A stretch of DNA of 27,774 nucleotides, taken from an uncultured Candidatus Woesearchaeota archaeon (GTDB taxonomy: Archaea > Nanobdellota > Nanobdellia > Woesearchaeales > B29-G15). Positions 4,069-26,439 of this stretch are shown here, in pieces. Position numbers and translations under genes: made by a program. The stretch spans positions 1 to 27,774 of the forward strand of contig CAIWSB010000051.1 in the NCBI GenBank assembly GCA_903915225.1, written 5' to 3'. The notes beneath the pieces were generated by a model that was not told the origin of the DNA, searched no databases, and saw only the letters and a program-made list of their open reading frames with translations. Every line of letters starts with the position of its first letter. Position 1 is the stretch's first letter.

Positions 4069-5112
4069 CTATCTGTTTTTCTCTATTGATTGGCGCTGCA
4101 TGTCATCCACTTTTGCCACAGAAATAGTGCCGTAAGCCTCAAGCTTTGAAGAGAGCTCCTTTAGGCAGTTTGTCTTGTAATGGCCATGGAGATGTATTGT
4201 TGGGGACACCTCTGCATCAACAACCTCTGCTAGGCCACCAAAGCGGAGGTAGAGCTGGGATTCAAGCTCATCCAGCTGGGCAGTGCTCTTGCCCAAGATT
4301 ACGGTATCCTTGTCAGCCATCTTCAGGTCTACATAAATATCTACACAATATCTCTCCTCTGCGCGGCTTTCCAGGGTTACTGCATCAAAATCCCTGTATA
4401 GCTTCTCATCAACCTGCACACCGAAGTATCTTGCTGCTCCAGCTAACCAATGGTAAAACGCAAGTGCCCCAGAATCAACTACCCCCACTTGCTCCAATGT
4501 CTTTGAGCCCTTGTTGGTCTTTACCCTGGCGCTGAGCTTGCGAGGGGTTTCTTTCACTGAATTAATTGCCGTCTTATACGCGTCTGAGAAGAATTCAGAA
4601 ATGTTTTCATTTTTCTCGCCATTATATTTTCTGGCTGTGTTTGCCACATCCTTCATAACCCCAACAATAGTGCCTTCTTCTATCACTGGGTCATCCTTAT
4701 GTGAATTCTTAATTATGTGCTCGTATCCGTCAATAAATCCGCGGGCTATGTCTCCTGTGCGGAGCTTTCCTGCATGAGCTGCCTTGGAAATCCCATCCAA
4801 GAACCCTGAGAAAAAGCTGTGCATGTATTTCCCAGAGTAGCCCCTGGCCTTTTTCACAATGTTTGCCCGGAGCTGCCCAATTGCCTCATCCAGCGAGGCT
4901 ATCTTTTCCTTGACCCTGAAATTCAGCAGCACAGGTGAGACGTTCCTGCCAGTATCTCCGTCAGGTATCGGGAAGAAGTTTATCTTGTTCAGTGTCTCTG
5001 CAATCTGGGGCTTGGATTCAAAGAGGCTTGAGGCAGAGTTAACCATCCCCACGAATTGCTCAAGGGTAATTTCACTCAATGTAGGCAAGCCCCCAGGTCT
5101 TTGGCCCTGCAT
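4069..5112 (-). CDS. DAK2/DhaL-domain protein, FakA-like (N-terminal and middle domains only)
   Basis: DGDTGRN motif in the expected N-terminal context of DhaL/Dak2. The C-terminal half carries FakA/YloV-like motifs (RYCVDIYV, IHLHGH, KVDDMQRQ). The ATG at 5112 overlaps the upstream gene by 41 nt; a TTG at 5079 is an alternative start. Confidence 0.65.
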   Translation of the reverse strand: MQGQRPGGLPTLSEITLEQFVGMVNSASSLFESKPQIAETLNKINFFPIPDGDTGRNVSPVLLNFRVKEKIASLDEAIGQLRANIVKKARGYSGKYMHSFFSGFLDGISKAAHAGKLRTGDIARGFIDGYEHIIKNSHKDDPVIEEGTIVGVMKDVANTARKYNGEKNENISEFFSDAYKTAINSVKETPRKLSARVKTNKGSKTLEQVGVVDSGALAFYHWLAGAARYFGVQVDEKLYRDFDAVTLESRAEERYCVDIYVDLKMADKDTVILGKSTAQLDELESQLYLRFGGLAEVVDAEVSPTIHLHGHYKTNCLKELSSKLEAYGTISVAKVDDMQRQSIEKNR

Positions 5113-6007
5113 GCACTCCCAGCTCAGGCCCTATTGGGCCAATTGGAATATATTTTTTTGTCTTTTGGGCAATCATAGCTGCCAAGTTCTGGGCAGGCTC
5201 ATACGTGGCCGGGGCAGAGAACACAACAGCAGCCTGCTCAATTCTCTTTGGCACCATCTGAAGCAGCTTTTTGTTTATGCCATCGGCTCCGCTGAATGCT
5301 ATGCCCCCTAAACCCATGTGGCCTCTATGGAGCTTAAGTATTGGCACAATAAACTTATCAAGCTTGAATTTGGAAGCTGTCCCCATTGCCTTGTTTACAA
5401 AAGATTTGACCCGGCCGCCATGGGAAGCATAGTACAAGTCCCCCAATGCGGCAAGCACAGTCACCCTACTAATTTTTCCTTGGACTTGGCCAGCAACATA
5501 ATCTCCACTTTTACCTTGATTAAGCAAATCCACGCCATACATGGCCAGAAGCCCAAGCCCCACAGAAGCGGTTTCACCGCAGATAGCTTTTACCCCTAAC
5601 TCCCCTGCAACCTTTGCCACAACAGCATAAGTTCCTGAGAGGTTCTCGTCAGTCTTACTGTCTTTCTGGATAATTGATATTACTATTGCCCCCTCGCATC
5701 CCGTCTTTTGAAATAGGTTCTTGAAATAATCCCTTATCGAGTCCTCATCTGGCTGCGAGGTTCCGGGCATCTCTATTTTTGCCTTTTTTCGCTGGAGGAG
5801 TAGCTCAAAAAGGTTGTTATTGATTTTGGTTAGCTCCTCTCCATAGCCCTGCTCCTCTTTTAATCCGTAGATGGGCTTATAGTTCACACTGGCCGGGTTT
5901 TCGACACCAGTAACCCACACGGGCAGAACACCGATGCCCTTCTCAACCAGCATCTCGAGTGGCAAACCCGGATAGCTGGCGGTTACAATCCTAATTCCCC
6001 CTGCCAT
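5072..6007 (-). CDS. DegV-family (FakB-like) fatty-acid-binding protein
   Basis: N-terminal IRIVTASYPGLP resembles the DegV IAIVTDSxxDLP start, and an internal LSGTY motif is present. An ATTTAAAATT box lies about 28 nt upstream of the ATG, so the transcript may be leaderless. Confidence 0.6.
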   Translation of the reverse strand: MAGGIRIVTASYPGLPLEMLVEKGIGVLPVWVTGVENPASVNYKPIYGLKEEQGYGEELTKINNNLFELLLQRKKAKIEMPGTSQPDEDSIRDYFKNLFQKTGCEGAIVISIIQKDSKTDENLSGTYAVVAKVAGELGVKAICGETASVGLGLLAMYGVDLLNQGKSGDYVAGQVQGKISRVTVLAALGDLYYASHGGRVKSFVNKAMGTASKFKLDKFIVPILKLHRGHMGLGGIAFSGADGINKKLLQMVPKRIEQAAVVFSAPATYEPAQNLAAMIAQKTKKYIPIGPIGPELGVHAGPKTWGLAYIE

Positions 6008-10802: not shown

Positions 10803-11939
10803 CTATTTGGGGATCCCTAACAAATTCTCCACATAGCCCACAATGCGGGGCTTGTCAGCAGGTATAAACCAGATTGTGCCTGCAACCTCATGGCCGCCAC
10901 CGTTAATCTGGGAATCTGGGAAAGCCAGCCTGAGCTCCTCAACCAGCTTATTGATGGTCAAGGGTAACCTTCCACGGATTATGAGCAAGCTGCCTCCAAC
11001 ACCTAGGACAATTGGCTCTTTGTCCTTCAAATCTTCATAAAGAAGGCCAACTGAGCGTCCGGCAGCAGGAAAGCCATTGTTGTCCATGAATCCATTTATC
11101 TCCAGTCGGGCCACGCAACGCCCTTTTGCCTCTGTTATATTTGCAAGCCTCCTGACTGCAGCAAGCCTCTGCTCAACAAGCCGATGTGCTATGGGGAAAA
11201 TCAATCCAATCATCCTTTCCTGCTTGTCTTTTGTGCCGAGCAGCAGCTCCCTTAGCACAGTTGTGGGCTCACGCCTAAACGAAGCGAGATAATCCAACGA
11301 CAAGTAAAGCTTGTGTAATGTATCTTTTGTGTATCCGTGCTTTTCAGCCACGCTTAGGTATGCCTCAAAATCAGAACCTTTGACTTTATCACCCACACCT
11401 GAAAGTGCAGGGAGATGCTCAACGTTGAGTATTGGATAAATCATCCTGGCAAGCTCAACACCCAGCATGCCTGCTGTGAAATCACCATTGCCACCAACCA
11501 AATAAGGGTTTATGTAAACTGTCCTTGTGCCTTCCTGGCTGGCCGGGTGGTGGTCAACTACTATTGATGGCACGCCGTAGATATTCAGCAGGTCTAACCC
11601 TGGCACATCGCCCTCTGTGCTGCCATCATCAATAAGCAAGATTATTCCTTTCTTTCCGTAATATCTTGGGCTTCTCTGTCCTCTAATGTCCGAAGCAGCC
11701 TCTCCTATTGAATAATTTGGTGCGCGGAGGCTTATCCTGTTCACAGATCTCCCACGGGAGAGCTGGATAAGGGCTTCCTCCATTGCCAATCCACCACAGT
11801 AACCATCGCAGTCCCCATGGTTCCTGATTGTGATTGGTGACTCTGTTGTGGCAGCCTGCTTCAGAAGTTCTGCAGCCTCAGTTAGCACTGGTTTTAATTT
11901 CTGGAAAATCTGCGTGTTGACAATTGGTGTGGTTATCAT
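10803..11939 (-). CDS. DHH-family phosphoesterase (RecJ/NrnA-like)
   Basis: Motifs in order: HGDCDGY (DxD), LLIDDGS, VVDHHP (DHH), GGGHEVAG (DHHA1 GGGH). The start overlaps the upstream stop (ATGA). Confidence 0.8.
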   Translation of the reverse strand: MITTPIVNTQIFQKLKPVLTEAAELLKQAATTESPITIRNHGDCDGYCGGLAMEEALIQLSRGRSVNRISLRAPNYSIGEAASDIRGQRSPRYYGKKGIILLIDDGSTEGDVPGLDLLNIYGVPSIVVDHHPASQEGTRTVYINPYLVGGNGDFTAGMLGVELARMIYPILNVEHLPALSGVGDKVKGSDFEAYLSVAEKHGYTKDTLHKLYLSLDYLASFRREPTTVLRELLLGTKDKQERMIGLIFPIAHRLVEQRLAAVRRLANITEAKGRCVARLEINGFMDNNGFPAAGRSVGLLYEDLKDKEPIVLGVGGSLLIIRGRLPLTINKLVEELRLAFPDSQINGGGHEVAGTIWFIPADKPRIVGYVENLLGIPK

Positions 11940-12184
11940 TTTTGTGAGTGCCCAAAATGGATTAGAAGTTTTACCCCTAGCTGCTCAAGCCCGTGGGGGA
12001 TGTCGCAGGCCCCGTAGCAGGAGCCCCCCCAGATAATCACCCGGGCTTTTGTGGCTTTTTCCAGGTGGTCAACAATTTCTCCGGCTCGGGGCTTTAAGCC
12101 GTCAGGGAGCTGGATTGCAACTGTTTTGGCCTTGTTCTTCTGGATTAGCTTCACAGCCCTATCCAATTCCAAATCATAATCCAT
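11936..12184 (-). pseudogene. dph2: Truncated dph2 (diphthamide synthesis radical-SAM enzyme), N-terminal 82 aa only
   Basis: LELDRAVKLI..AKTVAIQLPDGLK..YGACDI..LLIHFGHS is collinear with the first ~80 aa of archaeal Dph2 (about 330-340 aa). The ORF stops right after GHS, so two of the three Fe-S cysteines are missing. Its own TATA box (12206-12213) lies about 26 nt upstream. Confidence 0.6.
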
Positions 12185-12502: not shown

Positions 12503-12504
12503 CC

Positions 12505-12528
12505 AAAAACAGCCCCAGAATAAAAACT
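12505..12528 (-). terminator. Oligo-T tracts after the last mini-pilin gene
   Basis: The minus strand reads TAA-AGTTTTTATTCTGGGGCTGTTTTTGG, giving two T5 runs directly after the stop. Oligo-T is the usual archaeal termination signal. The first run may also serve as a TATA-like box for rnp4. Confidence 0.4.
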
Positions 12529-12768
12529 TTAGGTTATTGGGATACAGCAGACCTTGCTTTCCTTGCTGCATGATGTGCTGCCCATGGTTGCCTCGTTCGC
12601 AGCGCAGATTGGCTTGCATTCCCCACTGCGCGCCTGGCAGTCAGACACGCTTGAGGAGAAGATTCCAATGTTGCCTGAGAAAACCAAAACAAGAACAACA
12701 AGAACAATTACAACCAGGGCTGCAATCACTATGGTTTCAAGAGTCAAGCCCTGCCCACGCGAGTCCAT
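12529..12768 (-). CDS. Mini-pilin 1: class III signal peptide plus a six-cysteine C-terminal domain (79 aa)
   Basis: MDSRG|QGLTLETIVIAALVVIVLVVLVLVF followed by C-x6-C-x3-C-x11-C-x6-CC. Paralogous to the two upstream genes. Confidence 0.85.
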   Translation of the reverse strand: MDSRGQGLTLETIVIAALVVIVLVVLVLVFSGNIGIFSSSVSDCQARSGECKPICAANEATMGSTSCSKESKVCCIPIT

Positions 12769-12775
12769 ACTGGGC

Positions 12776-13045
12776 TTATTTCGTGGTGGTTGTTACTGGC
12801 TCTGGGGCGCTTATGCAGCAGACGGTTTTACCTGTTTCAGTACAGCCGGTAGCTAGGGTGAGTTTTATCTGTCCAGTACCGCAAGCATCCAAACACTGTC
12901 CTCCCCTTTCTGTGCACCCGCTCGCTGACTTTGAGAACGGCCCAAGGTTGCCTGTAAAGATTAATATTAGGACAACCAGGACTATAACGACAAGCGCTGC
13001 GATAACAATTGTGTCCAGCGTCAAACCCTGACCTTTGTTTTTCAT
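12776..13045 (-). CDS. Mini-pilin 2: class III signal peptide plus a six-cysteine C-terminal domain (89 aa)
   Basis: MKNKG|QGLTLDTIVIAALVVIVLVVLILIF followed by C-x6-C-x3-C-x12-C-x7-CC. A GAGGTGAT SD lies 7 nt upstream. Confidence 0.85.
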   Translation of the reverse strand: MKNKGQGLTLDTIVIAALVVIVLVVLILIFTGNLGPFSKSASGCTERGGQCLDACGTGQIKLTLATGCTETGKTVCCISAPEPVTTTTK

Positions 13046-13056
13046 AATTTATCACC

Positions 13057-13311
13057 TCAAGTTGTAGTGGGCGCAGTAAAGCAGCAGATGTTCGTGCCAT
13101 CGCACTTTGCCTCTGCTGCACTAAGCCCAATCTCTTTTGCAGGATCACAAGAAGCCTTGCAGACTCCTCCCCTTTCACCGCAAGCCCTCGCAGTTGCAGA
13201 GAAAGGCCCCATGTTGCCTGTGAAGATGAGTATAAGAACAACAAGAACAATTATGACCAGCGCAGCAATAACTATCGTGCTTATGGTCAAACCCTGGCCT
13301 CTTTTACTCAT
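13057..13311 (-). CDS. Mini-pilin 3: class III signal peptide plus a six-cysteine C-terminal domain (84 aa)
   Basis: MSKRG|QGLTISTIVIAALVIIVLVVLILIF followed by C-x6-C-x3-C-x14-C-x5-CC. The ATG at 13311 lies about 27 nt downstream of a TATA box, so the transcript is probably leaderless. The track start (TTG at 13329) falls inside the promoter. Confidence 0.85.
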   Translation of the reverse strand: MSKRGQGLTISTIVIAALVIIVLVVLILIFTGNMGPFSATARACGERGGVCKASCDPAKEIGLSAAEAKCDGTNICCFTAPTTT

Positions 13312-13331
13312 AGAGGGCAAAGGGAGCAAAG

Positions 13332-13348
13332 TAGTATATAAAATTTTC
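13332..13348 (-). promoter_or_regulatory. BRE/TATA promoter element (minus strand GAAAATTTTATATACTA), copy 1
   Basis: The TATA core TTTATATA is centred 27.5 nt upstream of the mini-pilin 3 ATG. An identical 17-mer recurs at 26379-26395. Confidence 0.6.
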
Positions 13349-13354
13349 GTATCC

Positions 13355-13849
13355 TCAGCTGCAGATTTCCAGCCGGACCTCGAGAGTCCTGCCTGTGAAG
13401 GGCGAGGGTAAGCTGTAAATCCCAGGCTTTACGCGGTTCGCGCACGTTAAGTCAGCAGCTGGAATCTTCCACATAACATCTGTTTGAACCCTGAAACTGA
13501 ACTGATAATCGTACTGCATTACCCCCAGTGTGTTGTCCAGGGCCAGCTGCACCACTCGCTTCGCCTCATCGCAGGGGCTGCTGCCCCCAGGGCATTTCAG
13601 CGAGCCGCCTGCAAGCCCTGGGCTTTCGCATGCCGCAAGAATGTCCCAAAGGTCCTGCCCGCTGCACTCAGTTGTAACCTTGAGGATGGCATCGATAAAG
13701 TTTGAAGCCATCTGGGTCCTCTCGTACTCAGCCTTTATGTTTATCTCATTTGCACTCGGCCGGGAGATTGAGATGTAGATAAAGAACCCGACCATTATCA
13801 AAAGCACTACAAAAACCAGGCCAAATATCTCCATCTGGCTGCGCCTCAT
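13355..13849 (-). CDS. Pilin-like protein with class III signal peptide (164 aa)
   Basis: MRRS|QMEIFGLVFVVLLIMVGFFIY followed by a soluble domain with 6 Cys. The start overlaps the upstream stop (ATGA), and a GGTGGTGA SD is present. Confidence 0.75.
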   Translation of the reverse strand: MRRSQMEIFGLVFVVLLIMVGFFIYISISRPSANEINIKAEYERTQMASNFIDAILKVTTECSGQDLWDILAACESPGLAGGSLKCPGGSSPCDEAKRVVQLALDNTLGVMQYDYQFSFRVQTDVMWKIPAADLTCANRVKPGIYSLPSPFTGRTLEVRLEICS

Positions 13850-14328
13850 CCCTGCATCACCACCACCTTGAGCACCCCAAGGTATATCTTGCTGCCATCC
13901 TGGAGGCTCACTGGCACAAAGAAACTGTTGGTTTGCGTCGACTTATCGGGCGAGAGTGAATATAGAGTCCAGGAAAGGCTAGGTGATGGGTAGATTCTTG
14001 TTACAGTAATATTCGAGTAACCAAACTGCTTAAAGTAATAGTCAGAGAAATAATGGCTCCCGCGCAGCCTGAGTGATTCAAATGCAATTACCTTCTGAAG
14101 GTCAAAGCAAGTATTCCGCATGTATTCCCCAGAGGTGCAAACAAACTCGGGTGCGTTCAGGGCTATGAGGGTTGTCTCAATGGCTCCCAGAGACTGAAAT
14201 TCTCCCACTTTTTGGTCAATATTCCTCTTTGATTCAACATAGTAGAATATAAGCCCAATGCCCACAAACACGATGAATATGAGCACAACAAAAATGGTTT
14301 CAAACATCTGGATTTGGGCCTTTCTCAT
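13846..14328 (-). CDS. Pilin-like protein with class III signal peptide (160 aa)
   Basis: MRKA|QIQMFETIFVVLIFIVFVGIGLIFYY. The ATG follows the upstream stop directly (TAAATG), and an AGGTG SD is present. Confidence 0.75.
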   Translation of the reverse strand: MRKAQIQMFETIFVVLIFIVFVGIGLIFYYVESKRNIDQKVGEFQSLGAIETTLIALNAPEFVCTSGEYMRNTCFDLQKVIAFESLRLRGSHYFSDYYFKQFGYSNITVTRIYPSPSLSWTLYSLSPDKSTQTNSFFVPVSLQDGSKIYLGVLKVVVMQG

Positions 14329-15333
14329 TTAGTACACCTGCGGCACAGACTCGTAGACGAGTATCTTGTTGGCCTCATTTAACCTCCTGATGAAGCCAAC
14401 AATCTGGGAGATTGCCAGGGAATGTGAGGCAGCCAGGGTGTTCATCTGCTGAATCTCCCCTTCAACATTTGTGTATAGGTTTGAGTATTTGGGGTTGGAT
14501 TGATAGCTATCCTTCAGCAGCTTCACTTTTTCCAACAGCACACCTGAGACCACCTCAACTGCAGTCATTGAGCTGTTGAAAACGCAGGAATAAATGTTAT
14601 AGTCTCCTGACACTAACGCACCCATGAGCTGCTCCTTTTTCAGCCAATTCCCATCGCCCACCTGCTCCCAGGCAACCCCGTTTTGCTTGTAGAACTTTAC
14701 GCTGCCGGAGATGTTGTCAGCATTCAAGGTTACCTCAACTGCCTTGAGCCTTTTCCCGCTGAAGCCAGGATTGGCCAAGGGCAGGTTTAGAAAAACAAAG
14801 ACGGTGTAATAATTATTCTCGTCAGGAACAGCCGCAGCGTCACTTGCGTATTGCACATTGACCTTTGCTGGCAAAAACTTCTTCAGGGTATTCATAAGGC
14901 TCTGGGACGGCCCGCTGTTGTCGTAAATCACGTTATACTTGGCTTCAGGCGTGGTTGCGAAAATAAAATTGCCAGCATAGAACGGCACAAACCAGGAGTA
15001 GGTCCAAACCTGCAGCCCTGTGCCCTTAAGCTCGGGGGGCGCGAAAAGCAGGTTTGTGGCGAGCCCTGGCCCCGAGACACCGCTTGACTTAAACTGGCTG
15101 CAGTCATACTTGAGGTCAAGGTTAGGGATTTCCATGAACTTGGATTCGCCCTCAACAACCCCTGTTGCTGTAATCCTGGTCTTGAGGTTTCCCAGTGAAG
15201 ACAGGGTTGAGGTCTTGCCTGAGATTTTTATCCACCCCAGGGAGAAGCCCACCACCAGTGACAGGATGAGAACACCCGCCACAAGAATAAATATCCAATT
15301 GAATTGTAGCTCAATTGCTCCCCGGCGTCCCAT
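14329..15333 (-). CDS. Pilin-like protein with class III signal peptide (334 aa)
   Basis: MGRRG|AIELQFNWIFILVAGVLILSLVVG. A GGGGTGA SD overlaps the upstream stop, 4 nt from the ATG. Confidence 0.7.
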   Translation of the reverse strand: MGRRGAIELQFNWIFILVAGVLILSLVVGFSLGWIKISGKTSTLSSLGNLKTRITATGVVEGESKFMEIPNLDLKYDCSQFKSSGVSGPGLATNLLFAPPELKGTGLQVWTYSWFVPFYAGNFIFATTPEAKYNVIYDNSGPSQSLMNTLKKFLPAKVNVQYASDAAAVPDENNYYTVFVFLNLPLANPGFSGKRLKAVEVTLNADNISGSVKFYKQNGVAWEQVGDGNWLKKEQLMGALVSGDYNIYSCVFNSSMTAVEVVSGVLLEKVKLLKDSYQSNPKYSNLYTNVEGEIQQMNTLAASHSLAISQIVGFIRRLNEANKILVYESVPQVY

Positions 15334-15337
15334 TAAT

Positions 15338-18300
15338 TCACCCCTTTTTCCCTTCGGGGTTGATTGTCACAGACACCTTTACATCAGTGGGTGCAGTTTT
15401 GACTTTATTTACAGATTTCTTCTCAACCTTTTTCACAATTTTAGTCTCAACAGGCTTTTTTTCAACTGCATTGAAGATCACAGGCACAGTTATTGTTACT
15501 GGCTTTTTCTCCACGGTGTTTTTCACAGGTTGAACCTTGGACTCCACCTTTTTCACTTGCTGAACCTTGATCTCAACCTTTTTCATGGGTTGTTGCTCCA
15601 CTTTCTTAATTGGCGCAGCCTTTTTAATAGGTTTGGGTTCGGCCTTCTTCACTGGTTCTTCTAGAGTCTCCTCAATTCTCCTTGGCTCAAATGCGCTGGG
15701 TTTTTTCACCTCAAACTCCCGCATTATTCGCTCCTTCATCTTACTTATGTCCTCACCCTGAACAGGCTTGGGCGGGGTCTTGATTACAGGTGCACCGTGA
15801 ATGAAGAACCTCGGCTGGACAGGCTGCGCAATCGGTCCTGTGGGCCTTGACAGAGTTCTGGCAGGCATCATGGGCACTGGCCTTCTTGCTGGCTGCTTTT
15901 TGGTTGCCTTATAGCCGAAGTAGCCCAACAGCACCAGTATTATCAGGATAATAAATATGATGAAAACAATATATAATTTACTAGATGGATGCGAGTTCTC
16001 ATCATGCGGGTCTGTCTTTCCATCTATTTCCGCCTTATCATTGTAGCCATCCCCATCTGTGTCTGCCTTATTGGGGTCAATCTTATACTGGGCGTATTTC
16101 ACCAACTCTTCAAAGTTGGACAGGCCGTCACCATCATTATCCTTTGCTGCATCAGTTGGGTCCTTTGGATTTAGCCCATTGGCAAGCTCCACTTCGTTTG
16201 GGATTCCGTCGCCATCTATGTCCGGATCACATGCATCTCCTTTCTTGTCATTGTCCATGTCCTCCTGTTTTGGGTTGGACACAGAAGGGCAGTTGTCCAC
16301 TGTATCCAGTACTCCATCCCCATCTGCGTCCGTGGAGGATGGGTTTCCTGAGCAGATATTATTGCTGAGGCATTGGCGTGAGAAACAGTCGTTTCCAGAC
16401 TCGCATCGTTTGTCAGCGTCACAGCGCTTTCCATAGTTCACTGCACAGCGCTTGCCACAGTCCACATCAGATTCATAATCTGGATCAAGTACGTTATTTG
16501 AGCAGATTGAAGCATATGATACTTCGCATTTACCTGTGCTTCCGCATGTGAGCCCAGTTGCACAGTCCTCACTGGCAGTGCAATTCTTTCCTGAAGAGCA
16601 TTTTGAGCATGAACCCCCGCAATCCACATCACTCTCACCAGGACCTTTCAGCTTATCGGTGCACGTTGATGTGGTGCATTTCTTGGTAGTTGGGTGGCAC
16701 AGCAAGCCAGATGCACAATCTGTGTCAACTGCGCAGGTCTTGCCAGCCGCACATTTGGGGCAATTCTTGCCGCAGTCAACATCTGTCTCCATACCGATGT
16801 CTAATAGCGAGTTTGCACAAACAGAAGGCTGTTTGGAGGTATCAACCGTGACACCATCACTCTTGCCAGCATAATAACTCCAGATTCCAGCCCCGTTCTG
16901 AGCCTTCACCTGGAAATAATAAGTCTTGCCGTTACTCAGCTTGAGATTGGTGAATGTTTTTTGCTTTGACTTTGTGAACCTCCAGTCCATTACTTTTGAG
17001 TCATTTCTCTTGTTGAATATGGCAACGCTGTAGCCATTGATTTTGGAGAGGGTATCATTTGAGCTCCAGCTACCAGTAAGCTCATCTGTCATCCATGTAT
17101 ACTCATCATTGGTGAGGTCCGTGGAATCATTAACCTGCGGCGTTGCAGGAGGAGTTGTGTCCTTTCCAGTCTGGATAGTGAGCGTGGGCTGGGCTGCAGA
17201 GGTTATGCATCTGACATAAAACGTGTAATCCCCGTCATTCTTACTCACATAGGCACTGTAGAGTGTCTCAGTTAGGTTTGTCATCTCATTTATTATCTGG
17301 TTCGCGTTCTCTGAGTAGAAGCACTTTGTTGCCCGGTTTGAAACAACCGAAAGCCCAATTGGCTTTATGCTCTTATTCACCCAGCGGGGTGTAGTGCTCT
17401 CTATTGTCAAGGGAAGATTCCTGTCCACCTGGACATCAACAGTTGAAACAGTACTCTTTGCCCCAACCGGGTTCTCGCAATAAACATAAAAGCTGTAAAC
17501 CTTGGTGTCGACTGAGAAATTAATCGTCTTGAAATGTTCCCTTCTGTAGTCGTTTGTGTCAAACCCAGGGAAAATGAACCTCATTTTTGCAGGCGTAGCA
17601 TAGCTTGCCTCCCTGTCCCATTTGCATATGGTGGGATCATCGCTAGTCACAACTAGAGAGGATGTGAATGGAACACGGTACACAATAGGCGGATGAGCTG
17701 AAACGTTTATAATCGGGGGGATTGCATCATATCCAATTGTGAAATTTGCAGCAGGGTTTGTTTTTCGCCCCATGGTATCATTGCAGATTACAAAAATGGT
17801 TACATTGCCCCCTTGTGAAAGCTCAGAGAATGCAGCCTTTTTGTGGTATAACCCCCAAACTCCGCCAGTGGTGTTCACAGTTAGGGGTTTCATTAGGTCA
17901 AATGGCACCTTTATGCTGTCCATATACCTACATCTGGCCATTTCGTCTGTCTTGAAAACTAGGTCAAATGGAACTGTACTGACAACTCCCCATTTTGGCT
18001 TAAATAAGGAAACTGAAGGTGCCCGGGCATTAACTGTAAAAGAATGGAGCCCGGATAAAGGTGGCCGCCCCGCGGAAGTTGCTGTCGCTTGGATTGTGTA
18101 AAGCCCGTCTTTGGGGGCAAACATGCGGGTTTTCTTGTAAGTCCTGTCGTTAACCCTGGTCATGGTGAGGTTAATTGGCTTATCAAGCCCAATCAGCTGC
18201 ACGAGGAATTTTGTGGGAGCTTGAATGAAGGTTACAGTTATATTAAATGTATCCTTTGTAATAACCGAGCCCTCATTGGGAGTGGCCGGCTGGGTGACTA

Positions 18301-18646
18301 TAATTACATCTTTAGTCTGGTTGTTCACTTCAAACTCAAAGGAAGCATAATTCGCCATCTCATTCCCTATGTCATCCCGGGCCTTGACCTTTAGCACATA
18401 ATCACCGTTGTTAAGCTGGGGGGAATTCAGCACAAAGTAATTCCTTGCCTCTGTAACAATTCTGCTCTTGACGTCAATTGCAGCCCCTGTAGCCGGTTGG
18501 ATATATGCCTCTGTGATAGTTACCGGGTCATTTTCAGATGTAAAATCAATAGTAAATGAGGGGGTATTGCTTGAGACAACTACATACGCGCCTGCTGGGC
18601 TAGCAAGTAAGATAAGCAACAAAAGCAAAATTGTTGTTTTTTTCAT
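15338..18646 (-). CDS. Giant modular surface protein: Sec signal, Ig/Fn3-like domains, 3x 8-Cys repeats, TSP3 calcium-binding repeats, TM anchor, Lys-rich cytoplasmic tail
   Basis: Start set at the ATG at 18646 (MKKTTILLLLLILLASPAGA), which has an AAGGTGA SD; the track start at 18655 is a GTG. Fn3-like GKTYYFQVKAQNGAG. Three repeats with E[ST]DVDCG..C..C. D-x-D-x-DGDG motifs (DADGDGVLD, DIDGDGIPN, DNDGDGLSNFEE, DTDGDGYND). TM helix LYIVFIIFIILIILVLLGYFGY. Confidence 0.85.
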   Translation of the reverse strand: MKKTTILLLLLILLASPAGAYVVVSSNTPSFTIDFTSENDPVTITEAYIQPATGAAIDVKSRIVTEARNYFVLNSPQLNNGDYVLKVKARDDIGNEMANYASFEFEVNNQTKDVIIVTQPATPNEGSVITKDTFNITVTFIQAPTKFLVQLIGLDKPINLTMTRVNDRTYKKTRMFAPKDGLYTIQATATSAGRPPLSGLHSFTVNARAPSVSLFKPKWGVVSTVPFDLVFKTDEMARCRYMDSIKVPFDLMKPLTVNTTGGVWGLYHKKAAFSELSQGGNVTIFVICNDTMGRKTNPAANFTIGYDAIPPIINVSAHPPIVYRVPFTSSLVVTSDDPTICKWDREASYATPAKMRFIFPGFDTNDYRREHFKTINFSVDTKVYSFYVYCENPVGAKSTVSTVDVQVDRNLPLTIESTTPRWVNKSIKPIGLSVVSNRATKCFYSENANQIINEMTNLTETLYSAYVSKNDGDYTFYVRCITSAAQPTLTIQTGKDTTPPATPQVNDSTDLTNDEYTWMTDELTGSWSSNDTLSKINGYSVAIFNKRNDSKVMDWRFTKSKQKTFTNLKLSNGKTYYFQVKAQNGAGIWSYYAGKSDGVTVDTSKQPSVCANSLLDIGMETDVDCGKNCPKCAAGKTCAVDTDCASGLLCHPTTKKCTTSTCTDKLKGPGESDVDCGGSCSKCSSGKNCTASEDCATGLTCGSTGKCEVSYASICSNNVLDPDYESDVDCGKRCAVNYGKRCDADKRCESGNDCFSRQCLSNNICSGNPSSTDADGDGVLDTVDNCPSVSNPKQEDMDNDKKGDACDPDIDGDGIPNEVELANGLNPKDPTDAAKDNDGDGLSNFEELVKYAQYKIDPNKADTDGDGYNDKAEIDGKTDPHDENSHPSSKLYIVFIIFIILIILVLLGYFGYKATKKQPARRPVPMMPARTLSRPTGPIAQPVQPRFFIHGAPVIKTPPKPVQGEDISKMKERIMREFEVKKPSAFEPRRIEETLEEPVKKAEPKPIKKAAPIKKVEQQPMKKVEIKVQQVKKVESKVQPVKNTVEKKPVTITVPVIFNAVEKKPVETKIVKKVEKKSVNKVKTAPTDVKVSVTINPEGKKG
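15401..15658 (-). repeat. Degenerate Lys/Val/Pro-rich coding repeats in the cytoplasmic tail
   Basis: Protein sequence: KKAEPKPIKKAAPIKKVEQQPMKKVEIKVQQVKKVESKVQPVKNTVEKKPV...VEKKPVETKIVKKVEKK. The plus-strand DNA repeats the unit CTC[AC]ACCTTTTTCA at least three times. Confidence 0.7.
16352..16819 (-). repeat. Three tandem coding repeats of an 8-cysteine module (about 48 aa each)
   Basis: Track aa 613-660, 665-710 and 718-768 share the spacing C-x13/14-C-x3-C-x2(7)-C-x5-C-x5-C-x4/5-C-x5/6-C and an [ED][ST]DVDCG core. Confidence 0.8.
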
Positions 18647-18651
18647 TATGT

Positions 18652-21600
18652 TCACCTTAACCCAATTACTGGTGCTACTGGTGGAGTCCTGTCAAGGATA
18701 ATCTCATAGGGCTCTATTGCAGTTGCGCCAAGCCTATTTGTGGCATTGAAAACCACCCGGTTCATCCCGTCAATCAAATAGACATATTTCGTGAATGGGA
18801 CATTATGCCCGCGCCCCGGAGGTATAATGTAAGTATAAGGTGGGGTTGAACGAATTGAGATAAAGGCAAGTGTGACATTTGAGCCAGTGTCCTCTATGTA
18901 TCCACTTGCCTCCTGCTGTTGTAGCCTCACCTTGAATGTATTCCTTGGCCAAGATGCCACAACAATTCTTGGGGCCTGCCTCTCAACCCTGAAGCTGGAG
19001 AATTCCTGCAGCTTATTTCCCCTGGTGTCAATGCTGGTAATCTTTGCTGTGTAACGACCATCTGACATGAGGCTGCTTGGCCTGAATACAAGTGTAGTGC
19101 TATCTTTCCAAACAAGTGTTCCTGAGACGTTTAATGATTCCCAGAAGAGCTGTATTTTCGAACCAGTAGAGTTCCTGTTCAACGTTACAAACTCGCTCAC
19201 TGGATGGAAAAACACAGTGACATTCCTCACAATAGCCCTCACTGCCCCTTCAGGGGGTATCACATCAAAGGTGGGTGCACCTGAGACAAAGGTGAAGCTT
19301 TGGATATCAGAATCAGGGCTGGGGTTCTCTGCTAGGTCATACGCCCTAACAAAAACCTTGTAATCCCCTTGAGCGTGAAGAATAATCGGAGTAGAGCTCA
19401 GGTTGAACTTATTCGCTGAGTTTACAAGCGCAGTGGCAACCTGCTCATACGGCCCCGAGCCCAGCTTGAGGTATACCTTCAAAGTTGTTCCTGCTTCTGC
19501 TGTGCCTGAGAGCTTGAGGCGGTTTGTATCTGTGTAAGATGGGATTGCATTGAGGATTGGTTTAGCAGGGTGTTCTGTATCAAGGTAAACCCTTATTCTA
19601 GATTGCCTCGCAGGAAGGTTTTCTGCAACAACTTCTATTGTGAACTCTTTCCATCCCTGGATGTTTGGTAGGTTAATTGTTTCTTCTCGGGTCATACTCT
19701 TTAGTGGAGGGCTGCCTGTGGTGTAAACATAGAACTGCTTTACAACCGCTCCATTGATATCCTTAAGTATAATGCTATTTATCCTCTCAAATGAGTCCAC
19801 ATAAATCCTGAACTTTGGTGTGGTGTAATTGATGTATGAGTTGTTCCCGGGGTAATAAAGGAAAATCCCTATCCCGCCTATATTGTGGGTTGAGAGTTTG
19901 ATGTTTGCGGTGTTAATAACCTCAACGTTCTTGCTGGGGTCAACTGCGAAATACTTTATTGTGTTATCACCTAAGCTAAGCTTGCCCTGTGAGATAAGGT
20001 CTTCAACCTTCATGGAGGCCTTTGTCATGTTGAAATATGAGCCTGGGTCTGAGTTAATGCCCTTATATCCAAACGTCCCGCATTCTGTTGAACCGGTGTA
20101 GGAGCACAGAAGTAGCTGGTATCCCCTTCCCAAACTTACTGGTCTTTCAACTCCCTGGGACTCGGTTTTGTCAAGAACACTAAAAGTTATGTTATCGTTA
20201 GTGAAGAGCCACACAGTAGAAGCCAAGGTGGAATGTGGAGGGTACCTGTCACGCTGGCACGCAAGGTCAGTTTCCCCGCAGTCAGGGGAACCGTCGCCAT
20301 TTGCATCCTTAACACAGTGTGTTTTAGTTGGTGCCTGAGCACATGCCCTTATTCCCCCATCACAAAGGCTGCTCCCAGTAGTTATCTGATTACTGTTGCC
20401 AAGTTCTATTGCCGCAGCACAATCTGTTTGGAGGGTAACCCCCTCGCAGGTGAAATCCCTGCAGGTTAAGCCGCCTGGTCCACATGGGAAATTCTCAACC
20501 TCCAATGCATTGCGCTTCTCTTGACTGCACCTGTTAAAGATAAAATTGTGGGCATCCAGGCTTTGCACAGCGCTAGTACCCTGGGATTCGCAGTATTTGC
20601 AATTGTCCCTTCCTTTGGTAACACAAACCCCCATGCCCAGGGCCTGGTTCGTCCAGTTCCAATTGCAGTCTAGAACACCTGCTGCTCGGCAATTGTTTGC
20701 CTCGCATGCCTCTTCTGATTTGTAATCATAGCAATCCATCAGCGGGTTGCAATCATAGCACTTATTGACCAAAGTTTGCGACTTGTCATAAAAGCAATAC
20801 TTGGGCTCCCCATTCTTTGTTTCACACTGATCCTCTGAGGTGGTAAACATTCCAAATGGCTGCACACCCTCACAGGGGCCTCTCGCATAGCATTGTGGCT
20901 GGTATGTGCTATCAATCACGCAAGTCTTGCCAGTTGCAGAGCAGTTTCTGTTTAAGTGCGCCTTGTTGCTTGCATTGCATGTATAAGAATTGAAGAAATA
21001 AGAGCTAAATGTGGTGTTAATCCATGCGCGGAGATTGGCTGGGGTTATTCCCAGGATGTTTTGGAAATAGTAAGAGAAGCTTGGCCGCTCTGAAGATACC
21101 AGCGTAAAGTAGTTTGGGGCAACGCAGAATGGCCTGCTGTCAAAGACGCCCCAGCACAGGGTATCCCCCAGTTTTATGTTAACCCTTCTAGAAAAGTCCA
21201 CATTCCTGTTCCCAGAAAGAAGGTAAGTTGCTGTGACATTATATTGGTATTCCTTCCCCCACTTCAAGATTGAGCCGTTATCCACATAACTCAAACCAAC
21301 GTAGTCCTTTACAATTTCCTGGTGGCCCAGTGTACCTATCTCTTTTCTTTCAATCCTGTAGAATTTCGGTCGGTAGCCGCAATTTGGGGCAGAAAAGCTC
21401 AAGTCAACAAGCTTCTGGCCCTTTCTAGGGGAAGCCAGAACAAACGGGGCAGGGTCAGGGCACACAGAGGGGTCAATATAATCAGGTAATGGTTCCTGAG
21501 GGAAACTGGCATTGTACCTCTCGCAATAGTCCCTGTCGCAAGGGCCTTGCATCTGTGAGTCATTAGTCCATATTCCCTTCTTGCATGCTGGCTCAACTCT

Positions 21601-21891
21601 TCTTAGAGGCAATGGATTACAACAGCAGCCAATGGTGCAGTTGTCTACTCGGGTGCAGTCAACTCCTGGCTTGAAATACCTCTCAACACAGGCCTGTTGA
21701 TCAGGGGCCCCTTCAATACCATATGCGGTGGGGTTATCTGGGCAGCATTGGGCTTGCGTTACAGGCAATAAGCAGACTATCGTCTTGGCGTTGAGGCAAC
21801 ACCCAGTTGCATCCTCTGCCCTCACAGCCACTGCCGCGCAGGCAATGGCAAGTAGCACCGATACCAAAAAAATCGCATTTGATAGTCTCAT
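18652..21891 (-). CDS. Giant secreted cysteine-rich protein (1079 aa) with an Ig-like C-terminal half
   Basis: Sec-type signal (AIFLVSVLLAIACAAVAVRA). About 44 Cys fall in aa 31-545 and only 2 after that. The C-terminal half is beta-rich with Big-like boundaries (DTEHPAKP, LDRTPPVAP). Many N-x-S/T sequons. A GGTGG SD precedes the ATG. Confidence 0.85.
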   Translation of the reverse strand: MRLSNAIFLVSVLLAIACAAVAVRAEDATGCCLNAKTIVCLLPVTQAQCCPDNPTAYGIEGAPDQQACVERYFKPGVDCTRVDNCTIGCCCNPLPLRRVEPACKKGIWTNDSQMQGPCDRDYCERYNASFPQEPLPDYIDPSVCPDPAPFVLASPRKGQKLVDLSFSAPNCGYRPKFYRIERKEIGTLGHQEIVKDYVGLSYVDNGSILKWGKEYQYNVTATYLLSGNRNVDFSRRVNIKLGDTLCWGVFDSRPFCVAPNYFTLVSSERPSFSYYFQNILGITPANLRAWINTTFSSYFFNSYTCNASNKAHLNRNCSATGKTCVIDSTYQPQCYARGPCEGVQPFGMFTTSEDQCETKNGEPKYCFYDKSQTLVNKCYDCNPLMDCYDYKSEEACEANNCRAAGVLDCNWNWTNQALGMGVCVTKGRDNCKYCESQGTSAVQSLDAHNFIFNRCSQEKRNALEVENFPCGPGGLTCRDFTCEGVTLQTDCAAAIELGNSNQITTGSSLCDGGIRACAQAPTKTHCVKDANGDGSPDCGETDLACQRDRYPPHSTLASTVWLFTNDNITFSVLDKTESQGVERPVSLGRGYQLLLCSYTGSTECGTFGYKGINSDPGSYFNMTKASMKVEDLISQGKLSLGDNTIKYFAVDPSKNVEVINTANIKLSTHNIGGIGIFLYYPGNNSYINYTTPKFRIYVDSFERINSIILKDINGAVVKQFYVYTTGSPPLKSMTREETINLPNIQGWKEFTIEVVAENLPARQSRIRVYLDTEHPAKPILNAIPSYTDTNRLKLSGTAEAGTTLKVYLKLGSGPYEQVATALVNSANKFNLSSTPIILHAQGDYKVFVRAYDLAENPSPDSDIQSFTFVSGAPTFDVIPPEGAVRAIVRNVTVFFHPVSEFVTLNRNSTGSKIQLFWESLNVSGTLVWKDSTTLVFRPSSLMSDGRYTAKITSIDTRGNKLQEFSSFRVERQAPRIVVASWPRNTFKVRLQQQEASGYIEDTGSNVTLAFISIRSTPPYTYIIPPGRGHNVPFTKYVYLIDGMNRVVFNATNRLGATAIEPYEIILDRTPPVAPVIGLR

Positions 21892-21901
21892 TCAAACCAC
21901 C

Positions 21902-23698
21902 TTAGCATGGAATCACGACTCTCGCATTTGTGCTGTTTGATGCCCCAAAGGAATCTGTGACAGAGAAAGTAATATTGTATACGCCCGTATTATTAGTAAA
22001 CCAAACGTTCCACCAATGGGTTATGCCTGTAGTATACCTTGTACCTATATTGTAATCAAGTGTTGGACCATGGAAGTCGAGGGTAAGGTTGAGCGGATCC
22101 TTATACGAATCCTCTAGGTTAGTGGTCTCAACCTTGTAGACAAACCAACCCGATACTGGGTCTTCCCCTGTGCATGAAACCCTAACATTGCTTGGGGGAG
22201 AATTAAAAAGCTTGATTGGGACGACAACCGTGTCGTTATAGTTGGGGTTATCTCGCTCAAAGAACTTTAAACTTAGCGTTGTTTGCATACCGTTATCAAA
22301 TTCAGACTCATTGTTGTATTCGCAGGCCTGGCCCCAATCACAGTTTGATGTCTTGAAATCCCAGTCAATGGGATCATCATCAGGGTCATACGCCGGGCGG
22401 TAATTCCCTTGGGCGCCAGTTGAGTTTTTGTAGGCATTAAAAATGCAGGCAACTGCTTGCCTGTTCATCTGCTTAAAGACCCTGGCAGAGAGAACGTTTA
22501 AAGGAGTGTCAAAAACCCCACCGCAATTGGGGAGGTTAAGATAGGATTTCAGTCCGGGCACTGCACTAAGGTTTCTGTAGTGAATGTAAGCCGCAGAGGG
22601 TGGAGAATTAGGGATTGCAGCGAAAAATCTGTAAGTCTCGTATTCCGCCTGGTTCTGTTTTGGAATCCAGGACTGATTGTCCTCAAAGACCACTACATCC
22701 ACCTTTTTTTCATCCACGTCCCGTATAAGGTTGATTAAGCTAATGTTTTCCGACGAAACAGTGGAACTCAGATTATAACTGTAATCCTCTGCCTCTTTTC
22801 TCAAAATATCGTTCACGTATTTATATATTTTTCCAAACCTCACCCTCGAACTTATTGAGAATTTGTTTAGCAAAGTTGATTTGCCAGATTCAGTTACGTT
22901 ATTTTGAACAGTCAGGGGGCACATCATCTCAACCGAGGTGAACTCCTCTGAGAAGGTTGGATTTACCGACAAATTTCCAATCCGCTTTACAACCAGCCCC
23001 TTTTTCCTCAATTCCTCAAAATTCAGGCATTTGGTAATATTTCTGGCAATAAACTCTGCCAATGATGCCCGGATTTTCATCTTTGGGGACATCAAGGGTT
23101 GGATCCAACCAACCTGGCGAGCTACCCCTTCGTTCTCATAAAGCCCAGGGAGGTTTAGCTGGTTGAGCATTCTCGCATTGCTGACCATGTTCCCTGATAA
23201 ATCATGAGCCATTGAATCGCCAACCTCGGGGCCGAAAGCAATGATTTCTGAGTTCTCTCCCTCAAATGGGAATGTAATTGATGGGCAGCGTTCATAGGAG
23301 AATAAATCAGTTCCAATATCTCTAGGACAACATGAGAGTCCATAGGTTAATGTCCCTGGAAAGATAGAGTACCATATCCATCTACCCCCATAATCTAAAG
23401 CAAAATCCTCTGTTTTGAAGGAGTCCGGCACCGTGCCCCCTTGGCTTTCGTATATTACCCCCCCTTGCTTGCCCAGGAGTATTAAACCATTTAGAGTGGA
23501 GTCCATAAGGCATTGCTGAACGAACTCAATAACTGGCTCTACCTTGGGCGGCAAGTCTGGCAGCTGCGGGCTCTTCAGGAAAGGGAGTCTTAAGGCAATG
23601 ATTAATCCTGCACCCAGAATCACAACAACTGCAATTATTAGGAAGAAAGAGACCTGGGCCCTTTTATCTCCAAGCGCCTCATTTTCTTCATTGCTCAC
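21902..23698 (-). CDS. Large pilin-like protein (598 aa) with class III signal peptide and a PKD/Ig-like C-terminus
   Basis: GTG start with a GAGGTGG SD about 5 nt upstream. N-terminus GDKRA|QVSFFLIIAVVVILGAGLII. The C-terminal YNITFSVTDSFGASNSTNARVVI resembles the last strands of a PKD domain. Confidence 0.75.
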   Translation of the reverse strand: MSNEENEALGDKRAQVSFFLIIAVVVILGAGLIIALRLPFLKSPQLPDLPPKVEPVIEFVQQCLMDSTLNGLILLGKQGGVIYESQGGTVPDSFKTEDFALDYGGRWIWYSIFPGTLTYGLSCCPRDIGTDLFSYERCPSITFPFEGENSEIIAFGPEVGDSMAHDLSGNMVSNARMLNQLNLPGLYENEGVARQVGWIQPLMSPKMKIRASLAEFIARNITKCLNFEELRKKGLVVKRIGNLSVNPTFSEEFTSVEMMCPLTVQNNVTESGKSTLLNKFSISSRVRFGKIYKYVNDILRKEAEDYSYNLSSTVSSENISLINLIRDVDEKKVDVVVFEDNQSWIPKQNQAEYETYRFFAAIPNSPPSAAYIHYRNLSAVPGLKSYLNLPNCGGVFDTPLNVLSARVFKQMNRQAVACIFNAYKNSTGAQGNYRPAYDPDDDPIDWDFKTSNCDWGQACEYNNESEFDNGMQTTLSLKFFERDNPNYNDTVVVPIKLFNSPPSNVRVSCTGEDPVSGWFVYKVETTNLEDSYKDPLNLTLDFHGPTLDYNIGTRYTTGITHWWNVWFTNNTGVYNITFSVTDSFGASNSTNARVVIPC

Positions 23699-23749
23699 AG
23701 GACCACCTCTTTGAGGGAAAAAGGCAGGTTTAGAATATTTAAAGGTTTC

Positions 23750-23868
23750 GCCGGCCAGACAGAACCTCCAGAGAGGTGGCTGGCCGTGTCCTCAGACACC
23801 ATCCACGCCTCGCAAGGTGTGTGGCCGCGCCTGATGCACGGCGTTAGCCACGCTGAGGCACGCGCCGA
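23750..23868. other. GC-rich (about 67%) hairpin-dense intergenic element; candidate structured RNA or 3' UTR
   Basis: Nested hairpin CGGCCAG...ACCTC-CAGA-GAGGT...CTGGCCG (23752-23786). Further hairpins: GTGTC-CTCA-GACAC (23786-23799), CCAC/GCCT-CGCA-AGGT/GTGG (23803-23824) and GCGCC-N8-GGCGT (23827-23844). Flanking sequence is roughly 40-45% GC. Confidence 0.35.
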
Positions 23869-26340: not shown

Positions 26341-26378
26341 AAGCTCACCGGTTTTTATATATCCCAAAAATCAGATTA

Positions 26379-26395
26379 TAGTATATAAAATTTTC
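26379..26395 (-). promoter_or_regulatory. BRE/TATA promoter element (minus strand GAAAATTTTATATACTA), copy 2
   Basis: Exact 17-nt match to 13332-13348. The TATA core is about 45 nt upstream of the ATG at 26340, which would give an ~18-nt leader containing the SD. Confidence 0.55.
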
Positions 26396-26439
26396 TATAA
26401 GAGGTCATCCACCCTACTCCACTTGGTTCCATCTGGGAA

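Follow-up and report, generated by a model that had tools for sequence, protein, structure and literature searches.

The window analysed here, a stretch of 27,774 nucleotides (nt) from an uncultured Candidatus Woesearchaeota archaeon (contig CAIWSB010000051.1), carries on its minus strand three tandem genes (12529-13311) for very small proteins in which a prepilin-like N-terminus is followed by a head domain with six cysteines. These mini genes are read here, with slightly more confidence than doubt, as paralogous major subunits of a type-IV-filament-like (Epd/Tad-like) surface fibre of Woesearchaeota, which would display defensin-fold mini-heads. By sequence comparison, the mini proteins are members of a large family which comprises more than 1,500 clusters and has no annotation. 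What is new here is an archaeal type-IV-pilin-like subunit with an unprecedented head domain. Genomic contexts of relatives are referred to by the locus identifiers L001 to L016.

The mini genes and their products

The three genes are listed in the order of their transcription.

13057-13311, minus strand: gene 3, mini-pilin-like protein of 84 amino acids (aa), transcribed first; C-x6-C-x3-C-x14-C-x5-CC, Thr-rich tail
12776-13045, minus strand: gene 2, mini-pilin-like protein of 89 aa, transcribed second; C-x6-C-x3-C-x12-C-x7-CC, tail PEPVTTTTK
12529-12768, minus strand: gene 1, mini-pilin-like protein of 79 aa, transcribed last; C-x6-C-x3-C-x11-C-x6-CC, the protein used for modelling

An initial annotation of this DNA had described three paralogs of 79, 89 and 84 aa. 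This was borne out by the minus-strand open reading frames (ORFs) and by three further metagenome assemblies of this organism, in which gene calls made independently give identical products of 84, 89 and 79 aa. All three proteins start with M-x-x-[KR]-G-Q-G-L-T-[LI]-x-T-I-V-I-A-A-L-V, continue with a hydrophobic helix of 24 residues and then have the hinge GN[ILM]G[IP]FS; the first Cys is residue 44 in each case. Hence the prepilin-like N-terminus, the hinge and the position of the first Cys, as described initially, were all present in the translations. The Cys spacings were recomputed and were identical to those given before, including the G-x-C at the second Cys (SGEC, GGQC and GGVC).

Within the N-terminal 38 codons, the paralogs share 74-82% protein identity, and 43-72% of the codons for identical residues differ in their nucleotides. 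Synonymous change in the helix region is thus saturated, which indicates that the paralogs are old and that their N-terminal identity is kept by purifying selection. Recent gene conversion as the cause of this identity was ruled out by the synonymous codon divergence. The tails following the CC pair are not conserved among the three proteins (IPIT, ISAPEPVTTTTK and FTAPTTT). Two of the three are Thr-rich (APEPVTTTTK and APTTT; tail regions 12529-12560, 12776-12810 and 13057-13080), and similar P/T/S-rich tails are also present in relatives. The Thr-rich tails may be glycosylation sites.

Two antisense ORFs on the plus strand (164 aa, 12537-13031; 114 aa, 13067-13411) were rejected as shadows of the minus-strand genes. 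A TTG start at 13329 was also rejected, as it sits inside the promoter and the homologues begin at the ATG.

Family size and taxonomy

The initial homologue search returned 15 proteins. A profile search against 1.84 billion cluster representatives gave 4041 matches at E ≤ 1e-3; with the stricter limit of E ≤ 1e-10, 1539 were left. Almost all matches are 80-110 aa long. A second, word-indexed search gave 1516 family matches at E ≤ 1e-6. Every match of the latter search that carries an organism name comes from Candidatus Woesearchaeota, Nanoarchaeia or Nanoarchaeota, where the taxonomy rests on the source names attached to the matches. All named matches except one are labelled ‘hypothetical protein’. 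When the full-length mini proteins were compared with Pfam and NCBIfam, no family was found that covers them, and the only defensin matches were below threshold. A sequence-pattern search of genome contigs for the family yielded 99 sites, none of which was confirmed by tblastn.

The N-terminus as a putative class III signal

N-terminal statistics were obtained from 152 family sequences. Their consensus is M-x-K-K-[AG]-Q-G-[LIM]-[SPT]-x-N-[TV]-I-I-I-A-A...V-L-V-V-L..I-F-T-G-R-x-G-x-F, and at the junction K/R is found in 150, A/G in 143 and Q in 143 sequences; the window proteins have RGQ, KGQ and RGQ. The experimentally processed Epd pilins of Methanococcus maripaludis have RAQI, KGQV, KGQL or KGQI, and EppA requires Gln at +1 (PMC4371748). 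The mini proteins possess the same arrangement of a basic residue and Gly/Ala at -2/-1 and Gln at +1. Directly after the putative cleavage site follows a hydrophobic stretch of about 20 residues (AlphaFold2, AF2, helix 10-33 with a predicted local distance difference test value, pLDDT, of 90). Across the family, this helix is far more conserved than the head; on sequence grounds, a conserved helix with a variable head is the classical pilin pattern.

The motif is also associated with pilin-like genes. Considering both strands of the window, an N-terminus of the type [KR][GAS][QA]-hydrophobic occurs in just six ATG-initiated ORFs of at least 60 aa, all of which are contiguous (12529-15333), and the neighbours of the mini genes among them have orthologues in five loci. 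The pilin-like nature claimed initially is thus supported computationally by the EppA-type class III motif, the conserved helix and the synteny with four class-III-type proteins and giant adhesin-like proteins.

Several observations weigh against a pilin identity. No pilin, archaellin or class-III-signal model of Pfam or NCBIfam matches the mini proteins. A profile of the N-terminus searched against the PDB sequences found no solved pilin, and its only match was a transmembrane (TM) helix in PDGFR, at E = 1.2. Gly occupies position +2, and position +5 is taken by the hydrophobic residues L or I in place of the Glu that is common there in EppA substrates and in bacterial pilins. Moreover, neither a T2SSE-type ATPase nor a platform protein nor an A24/prepilin peptidase is encoded within ±10 kb of the family members in any of the contexts examined. 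A Pfam scan of individual members gave generic TM matches and weak Flp1_like matches in four of 37 members (best E = 0.0013). At +6 the window proteins have E, D or S, and 116 of the 152 family members have Asn. The Flp motif G/XXXXEY is absent: the Gly is followed by QGLTLET, and there is no E-Y pair.

It was therefore considered whether the mini proteins are non-polymerising bitopic membrane proteins, in which an uncleaved signal-anchor would hold a disulfide-rich head at the surface, for example in a host-contact or envelope complex with the large neighbours. The lack of pilin model matches, the generic TM-helix matches of the N-terminal profile and the absence of linked genes for ATPase, platform and peptidase would all be in line with such an anchor. 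However, an anchor would not need a near-invariant whole helix or a [KR]-[GA]-Gln junction across thousands of clusters, and the same junction is found in the co-located proteins and matches the experimentally defined EppA site. This explanation is regarded as unlikely.

In the literature, a filament system of the Epd-like type (TFF system 1), in which the main pilin has no globular domain, is reported for DPANN (bioRxiv 10.64898/2026.04.22.720090), and Makarova et al. 2016 reported nanoarchaeal ATPases without recognisable cognate pilins (PMC4858521). No description of Woesearchaeota pilins was found in a full-text literature search. The word ‘pilin’ is used for the mini proteins as a well-motivated inference, not as demonstrated membership.

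Conserved gene context

Upstream of the mini genes, on the same strand, lie the following genes.

13355-13849, minus strand: pilin-like protein of 164 aa, N-terminus MRRSQMEIFGLVFVV..., 6 Cys, directly upstream of the mini genes (motif scan)
13846-14328, minus strand: pilin-like protein of 160 aa, N-terminus MRKAQIQMFETIFVV... (motif scan, BLASTP)
14329-15333, minus strand: pilin-like protein of 334 aa, N-terminus GRRGAIELQFNWIFIL... (motif scan, BLASTP)
15338-18655, minus strand: surface protein of 1105 aa with signal peptide, Ig/fn3-like domains, Cys-rich repeats, TSP3 calcium-binding repeats and a C-terminal TM helix (Pfam)
18652-21891, minus strand: Cys-rich surface protein of 1079 aa with 47 Cys and a Big_13 domain (Pfam, translation)
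21902-23698, minus strand: GTG-initiated protein of 598 aa with a class-III-like N-terminus (GDKRAQVSFFLIIAVVVILGAG...; read from the translation)

BLASTP orthologues of the 164-aa protein were found at the same position in L001, L005, L008 and L012, and those of the 160-aa and 334-aa proteins in L001, L005, L007, L008 and L012. The orthologues of all three keep their gene order beside family members in distant Woesearchaeota. In total, this context is shared by ten independent cases (L001, L002, L005, L007, L008, L012, L014-L016 and the window), each with orthologous pilin-like genes of about 350, about 160 and about 165-220 aa, followed by at least one mini gene. Per context, one to four mini genes come after three to four pilin-like genes, and wherever the contig reaches far enough upstream, the pilin-like genes are preceded by a giant Big_13/TSP3 protein of up to 8808 aa. 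This upstream set is missing from one other context (L010/L011). The 1105-aa surface protein, of which L012 contains a partial orthologue, is a candidate for the adhesin of the apparatus. Its C-terminal part of about 200 residues consists of the TM helix and a long, repetitive tail rich in Lys, Glu, Pro and Val (KKVE.K... repeats), a cytoplasmic extension of a kind that is unusual in an adhesin. Between the 598-aa protein and a pilin-like gene of about 170 aa of the distant relatives, BLASTP detected no homology.

In L014 (10001-11623), four tandem small genes of 87, 82, 91 and 93 aa occupy the position of the mini genes, of which only the 87-aa product is a confirmed family member. Other relatives have one or two mini copies, so the copy number is lineage-specific.

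In more distant Woesearchaeota, a second block is located downstream of the mini genes (L005 13736-14728, L012 16446-20243, L015 15731-16789, L016 16016-20264). It encodes many proteins with [KR][GA]-hydrophobic N-termini together with bacterial-type cell-wall hydrolases (Amidase_3, Peptidase_M23, SLT lytic transglycosylase, VanY/M15), which may point to an apparatus directed against the cell walls of bacteria; the window lacks this block. Furthermore, in almost all relatives the downstream block contains a gene of 46-54 aa whose product has a basic N-terminus and a single hydrophobic helix (L005 11718-11876, L007 11806-11964, L010 4599-4757, L012 12597-12755, L014 14685-14849, L015 11814-11969, L016 12326-12466).

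Fold of the six-cysteine head

The 79-aa protein was modelled with AF2 using an alignment of 10 sequences. The full-length model (mean pLDDT 71) consists of the long helix 10-33, a short helix 41-46 and three strands; a model of the head only reached a pLDDT of 75 (core 77-84). Both models were used as Foldseek queries against 350,542 PDB chains, a comparison with defensin folds which the initial annotation had proposed. For both, almost only β-, big- and α-defensins and β-defensin-like toxins were matched, at E-values which were all ≥ 0.097 and thus not significant. The best match was the crocodile β-defensin CpoBD13 (7t9q) with a TM-score of 0.68-0.81 on the target and a root-mean-square deviation of 1.2-1.6 Å; hBD1 reached a TM-score of 0.71-0.73.

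Independently of the models, a hidden Markov model of 36 short-loop heads (profile A5) was searched against 177,635 distinct PDB sequences. Nine entries were matched at E ≤ 10, all of which have the β-defensin fold. The best match was the tick carboxypeptidase inhibitor (TCI; E = 3.1e-6), and the isolated C-domain of TCI was matched at 3.2e-5, in an alignment that pairs all six Cys as well as the GG-x-C. Further entries were platypus DLP-2 and DLP-1, crotamine and gallinacin-11. TCI is a protein with a double β-defensin fold (PMC6339383). HHalign aligned A5 with the TCI C-domain at a probability of 93.6% (P = 2e-7). When the TCI sequence was shuffled with its Cys fixed, the score dropped from 22.3 bits to 1.6 ± 3.7 bits; hence, the match is not merely due to the cysteine frame. 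Alpha-defensins, used as a control, gave no match in HHalign.

Family-wide Cys statistics were based on the 157 sequences retrieved at that stage. Exactly six Cys are found in 138 of them, and hardly any sequence departs from C-x6-C (with GG-x-C) or from the terminal CC. Within the window the spacings are x6, x3, x11-14 and x5-7 with a terminal CC, compared with C-x6-C-x4-C-x9-C-x6-CC for β-defensins. As far as conservation of the Cys pattern in the family is concerned, the number of Cys was mostly kept, C-x6-C and CC were kept almost throughout, and the loop lengths were not. Going by the sequences, the β-defensin-like spacing is a property of the short-loop subset that contains the window proteins and not of the whole family.

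A number of results speak against the defensin fold. In addition to the Foldseek E-values, the loops between the conserved Cys vary within the family over 3-24, 8-34 and 3-21 residues. With only 10 aligned sequences, AF2 may have been led by the Cys pattern to a defensin fold that it had memorised. A separate profile, built independently from 71 long-loop heads, returned β-defensin-fold chains in 17 of 17 cases, none of them significant (best E = 0.34). HHalign against seven vertebrate β-defensins gave P = 0.004 and a probability of 8%. The Pfam models Defensin_beta_2, Defensin_beta, Defensin_big and Inhibitor_I68 all stayed below their gathering cut-offs; among the 36 members of A5, the best E-value of Defensin_beta_2 was 2.5e-4, and Inhibitor_I68 matched weakly in seven. 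Finally, the arrangement C-x3-C...C...CCC characterises one subfamily, and a few members deviate in having four or eight Cys. In the CCC and four-Cys subfamilies, both the CC pair and the columns of Cys2 and Cys4 persist, although the alignment of the divergent heads is uncertain. By sequence, this pattern is easier to explain if Cys2 and Cys4 are bonded to the CC pair than with the connectivity C1-C5/C2-C4/C3-C6. The variants with CCC or four Cys are P0009, P0059, P0082, P0103, P0105, P0111, P0147, P0151 and P0152, as well as P0015, P0120, P0142 and P0155.

The resemblance could be an artefact of modelling or composition, and the head a disulfide-rich or metal-binding mini-domain of another topology. 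The insignificant Foldseek E-values and long-loop profile, the shallow AF2 alignment and the gain and loss of Cys in the subfamilies are all compatible with this; we consider it a real, though minor, possibility. On the other side, the structure searches and, independently, the profile searches returned almost only β-defensin-fold proteins among all disulfide-rich PDB entries, residues other than Cys carry about 20 bits of the TCI match, and the alpha-defensin control was negative. A β-defensin-type fold of the head is reasonably probable from the models and profiles. The initial claim of a β-defensin-like head is supported computationally, by AF2/Foldseek and by HMMER/HHalign, with the spacing limited to the closest, short-loop members. 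Common ancestry with the animal β-defensin/TCI (trans-defensin) domain is, in contrast, quite improbable.

The similarity to TCI raises a further explanation, in which the displayed head would be a tight-binding, TCI-like protease inhibitor that shields the filament or cell from peptidases of a host or of the environment via the short tail after the CC. TCI domains are indeed the best sequence matches (E = 3e-6, HHalign 93.6%), and seven of 36 heads weakly match Inhibitor_I68. TCI reportedly inhibits via its C-terminal tail (Arolas et al. 2005). In the mini proteins, however, the tails after CC are not conserved, the Pfam I68 matches are all sub-threshold, and the TCI similarity may reflect nothing but shared fold constraints. 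A role as inhibitor is regarded as very unlikely.

In summary of the comparison, the head has in common with TCI (MEROPS/Pfam I68) and the β-defensin fold class (vertebrate β-defensins, big defensins, crotamine, platypus DLPs) the six-Cys framework ending in CC, the GG-x-C at Cys2 and a hydrophobic residue after CC; its predicted fold is a short helix with a three-stranded sheet. It differs in its archaeal host, in being fused to a pilin-like helix where others have a cleavable Sec signal, in being neutral or acidic, in its widely varying loops and in its sub-threshold Pfam matches. No paper linking defensin folds with archaea or DPANN was found in the full-text literature search.

Charge of the heads and proposed function

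The net charges of the three heads are 0, +1 and 0, and many heads of the family are acidic. The cationic character of a secreted antimicrobial peptide is therefore not seen in the heads, a cationic membrane-active or antimicrobial role is unlikely, and there is no cleavable leader of the Sec type. Likewise, the mini proteins have no evident site at which the head could be cut off and released. The suggestions of the initial annotation that the heads might be antimicrobial or membrane-active, or be released as defensin-like peptides, thus found no support. In the latter case, the mini proteins would be precursors of an archaeocin or toxin, and the head, once cut off, would act on membranes of competitors or hosts. 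The predicted fold and the profile similarity to defensin-fold proteins would suit such a peptide, as would the tandem diverging paralogs, which are typical of conflict systems, and the cell-wall hydrolases further downstream in the cluster of some relatives. Besides the charge, which is unlike that of cationic antimicrobial defensins, neither a conserved processing site nor a dedicated peptidase or exporter is present, and the length and conservation of the hydrophobic segment exceed what a disposable leader would need. Released peptides are accordingly judged very unlikely.

For a filament subunit, the favoured reading, the following course is proposed. The precursor would insert in the membrane with its N-terminus inside, and an EppA-type prepilin (class III signal) peptidase would cut after [KR]-G, leaving Gln as residue +1. 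The mature subunit of about 74-84 aa would comprise the conserved hydrophobic α-helix of about 30 residues, the short GNxGxF hinge and the head of about 35 residues. With their helices packed in the filament core, the mini proteins would form the shaft of a thin filament. Each head would be held by three disulfides and fold like a β-defensin/TCI domain, i.e., as a short helix with a three-stranded sheet. The three to four larger pilin-like proteins and the giant Ig/TSP3 proteins would provide the priming or tip complex and the adhesin, a module with a parallel in the minor pilins and PilY1 of bacteria. Surface variation would come from the tandem paralogs, through their diverged, neutral heads and their Thr-rich tails. 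Cleavage, polymerisation, disulfide formation and the role in adhesion or host contact are all inferred.

Comparison with known filament systems

The closest parallels are the Epd pilins of M. maripaludis (EppA substrates, TFF system 1, major pilin EpdE). Shared features are the short precursor with [KR]-[GA]-Gln(+1) and a hydrophobic helix, a very small mature subunit and several other class-III proteins encoded together with it, and in both cases the gene of the major pilin need not be linked to those of the ATPase. Unlike the Epd proteins, the mini proteins match no sequence model, have Gly at +2 and lack the Glu at +5; in contrast to the major Epd pilin without globular domain, they carry the six-Cys head, and neither an EppA nor an ATPase gene was seen in their vicinity. 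Bacterial Flp/Tad pilins and truncated pilins of the Geobacter PilA-N type (about 50-70 mature residues) are similarly minimal, dominated by the N-terminal helix and commonly present as tandem paralogs, but the mini proteins are archaeal, lack G/xxxxEY and have a disulfide-rich head. In operons of bacterial minor pilins and PilY1 (FimU-PilVWX-PilY1-PilE; T2SS GspHIJK with GspG), larger pilin-like and very large calcium-binding or adhesin-like proteins are encoded beside a major subunit that is small and abundant. This likeness is an organisational analogy only, set by the gene arrangement and not by a sequence relationship.

Transcription signals of the mini genes

The following signals were read from the sequence.

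13349-13335, minus strand: promoter, B recognition element (BRE)-like CGAAAA followed by the TATA box TTTTATATA
13046-13056, minus strand: intergenic GGTGATAAATT with the Shine-Dalgarno-like GGTGAT 5 nt before the ATG of gene 2
12503-12528, minus strand: two T5 tracts (AGTTTTTATTCTGGGGCTGTTTTTGG) directly after the stop codon of gene 1 and before the Rpp21 gene

The promoter lies directly after the stop codon of the upstream 164-aa gene, and 23 nt separate the TATA box from the ATG of gene 3 at 13311. From this distance, transcription is predicted to start at or next to the start codon, and a leaderless or near-leaderless mRNA of the mini unit in the window is plausible. This BRE-TATA element (there CGAAAG-TTTTATATA or TTTAAATA) is also found upstream of the orthologues in L001, L002 and L012, where, unlike in the window, it is followed by a leader with the ribosome-binding site GAGGTGAT. 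The initial claim that the first gene has its own promoter is retained for the BRE/TATA element, and its leaderless character is plausible. The T5 tracts after gene 1 are likely an archaeal oligo-T terminator. Judged by these signals, the three mini genes are one transcription unit with its own BRE/TATA promoter and oligo-T tracts.

Other genes of the window

The window is taken to be archaeal because it encodes the archaeal markers Rpp21 (a subunit of RNase P), a diphthamide-synthase fragment and an archaeal-type uS15. The Rpp21 gene follows gene 1 and was called with 93 aa; a 134-aa version of this ORF, which would overlap gene 1, was rejected in favour of a start giving 93-95 aa. An 82-aa ORF (11936-12184, minus strand) matches only the first 55 of the 302 positions of the diphthamide-synthesis model and overlaps by 4 nt a 378-aa ORF (10803-11939, minus strand) with a weak DHH match. 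This split arrangement is not an assembly error, since it is kept in L001-L004.

All predicted extracellular proteins of the window (24-1844 and 13355-27525) are Cys-rich, with up to 6-7% Cys compared with 0.4-1.1% in cytosolic proteins, and their Cys numbers are mostly even (examples are 34, 32, 47 and 52). No enzyme that forms disulfides was seen among the products of the window. Outside the cell, disulfides seem to be usual in the proteins of this organism, in agreement with a head stabilised by such bonds. Two further Cys-rich proteins of 832 aa (23869-26367, minus strand) and 361 aa (26440-27525, minus strand) are paralogous over their C-terminal part of about 330 residues, share the motif RCQDG.W...KGYCP.KD.QC.VGNF.Y..NNKP and match no Pfam family. 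A Dak2/FakA-like protein (4069-5112, minus strand) is encoded beside a DegV protein (5072-6007, minus strand), i.e., a fatty-acid kinase pair of bacterial type; in an archaeal contig this pair may reflect lipid scavenging.

Significance for DPANN archaea

DPANN archaea depend on contact with other cells, and the main subunits of their filaments have lacked identification. The mini family is a concrete candidate, associated with a conserved module of adhesin and minor pilins, and probably supplies the long-missing main pilus subunit of these archaea. Its head would be the smallest globular pilin domain described. The initial annotation had placed it among the smallest pilin heads; this is correct for a globular head and not for the whole pilin, for the headless Epd and Flp pilins are smaller overall.

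To our knowledge, the β-defensin/TCI (trans-defensin) fold class has so far been regarded as restricted to animals. If the fold prediction is true, the mini proteins would represent the first β-defensin-type fold outside animals, which bears directly on whether the origin of defensin folds was convergent. If, beyond that, common ancestry with the animal β-defensin/TCI domain were true, it would imply a pre-animal origin or an inter-domain transfer, with thousands of DPANN members of the fold class on pilus subunits, and the fibre would be the first filament to display a defensin-fold domain on every subunit.

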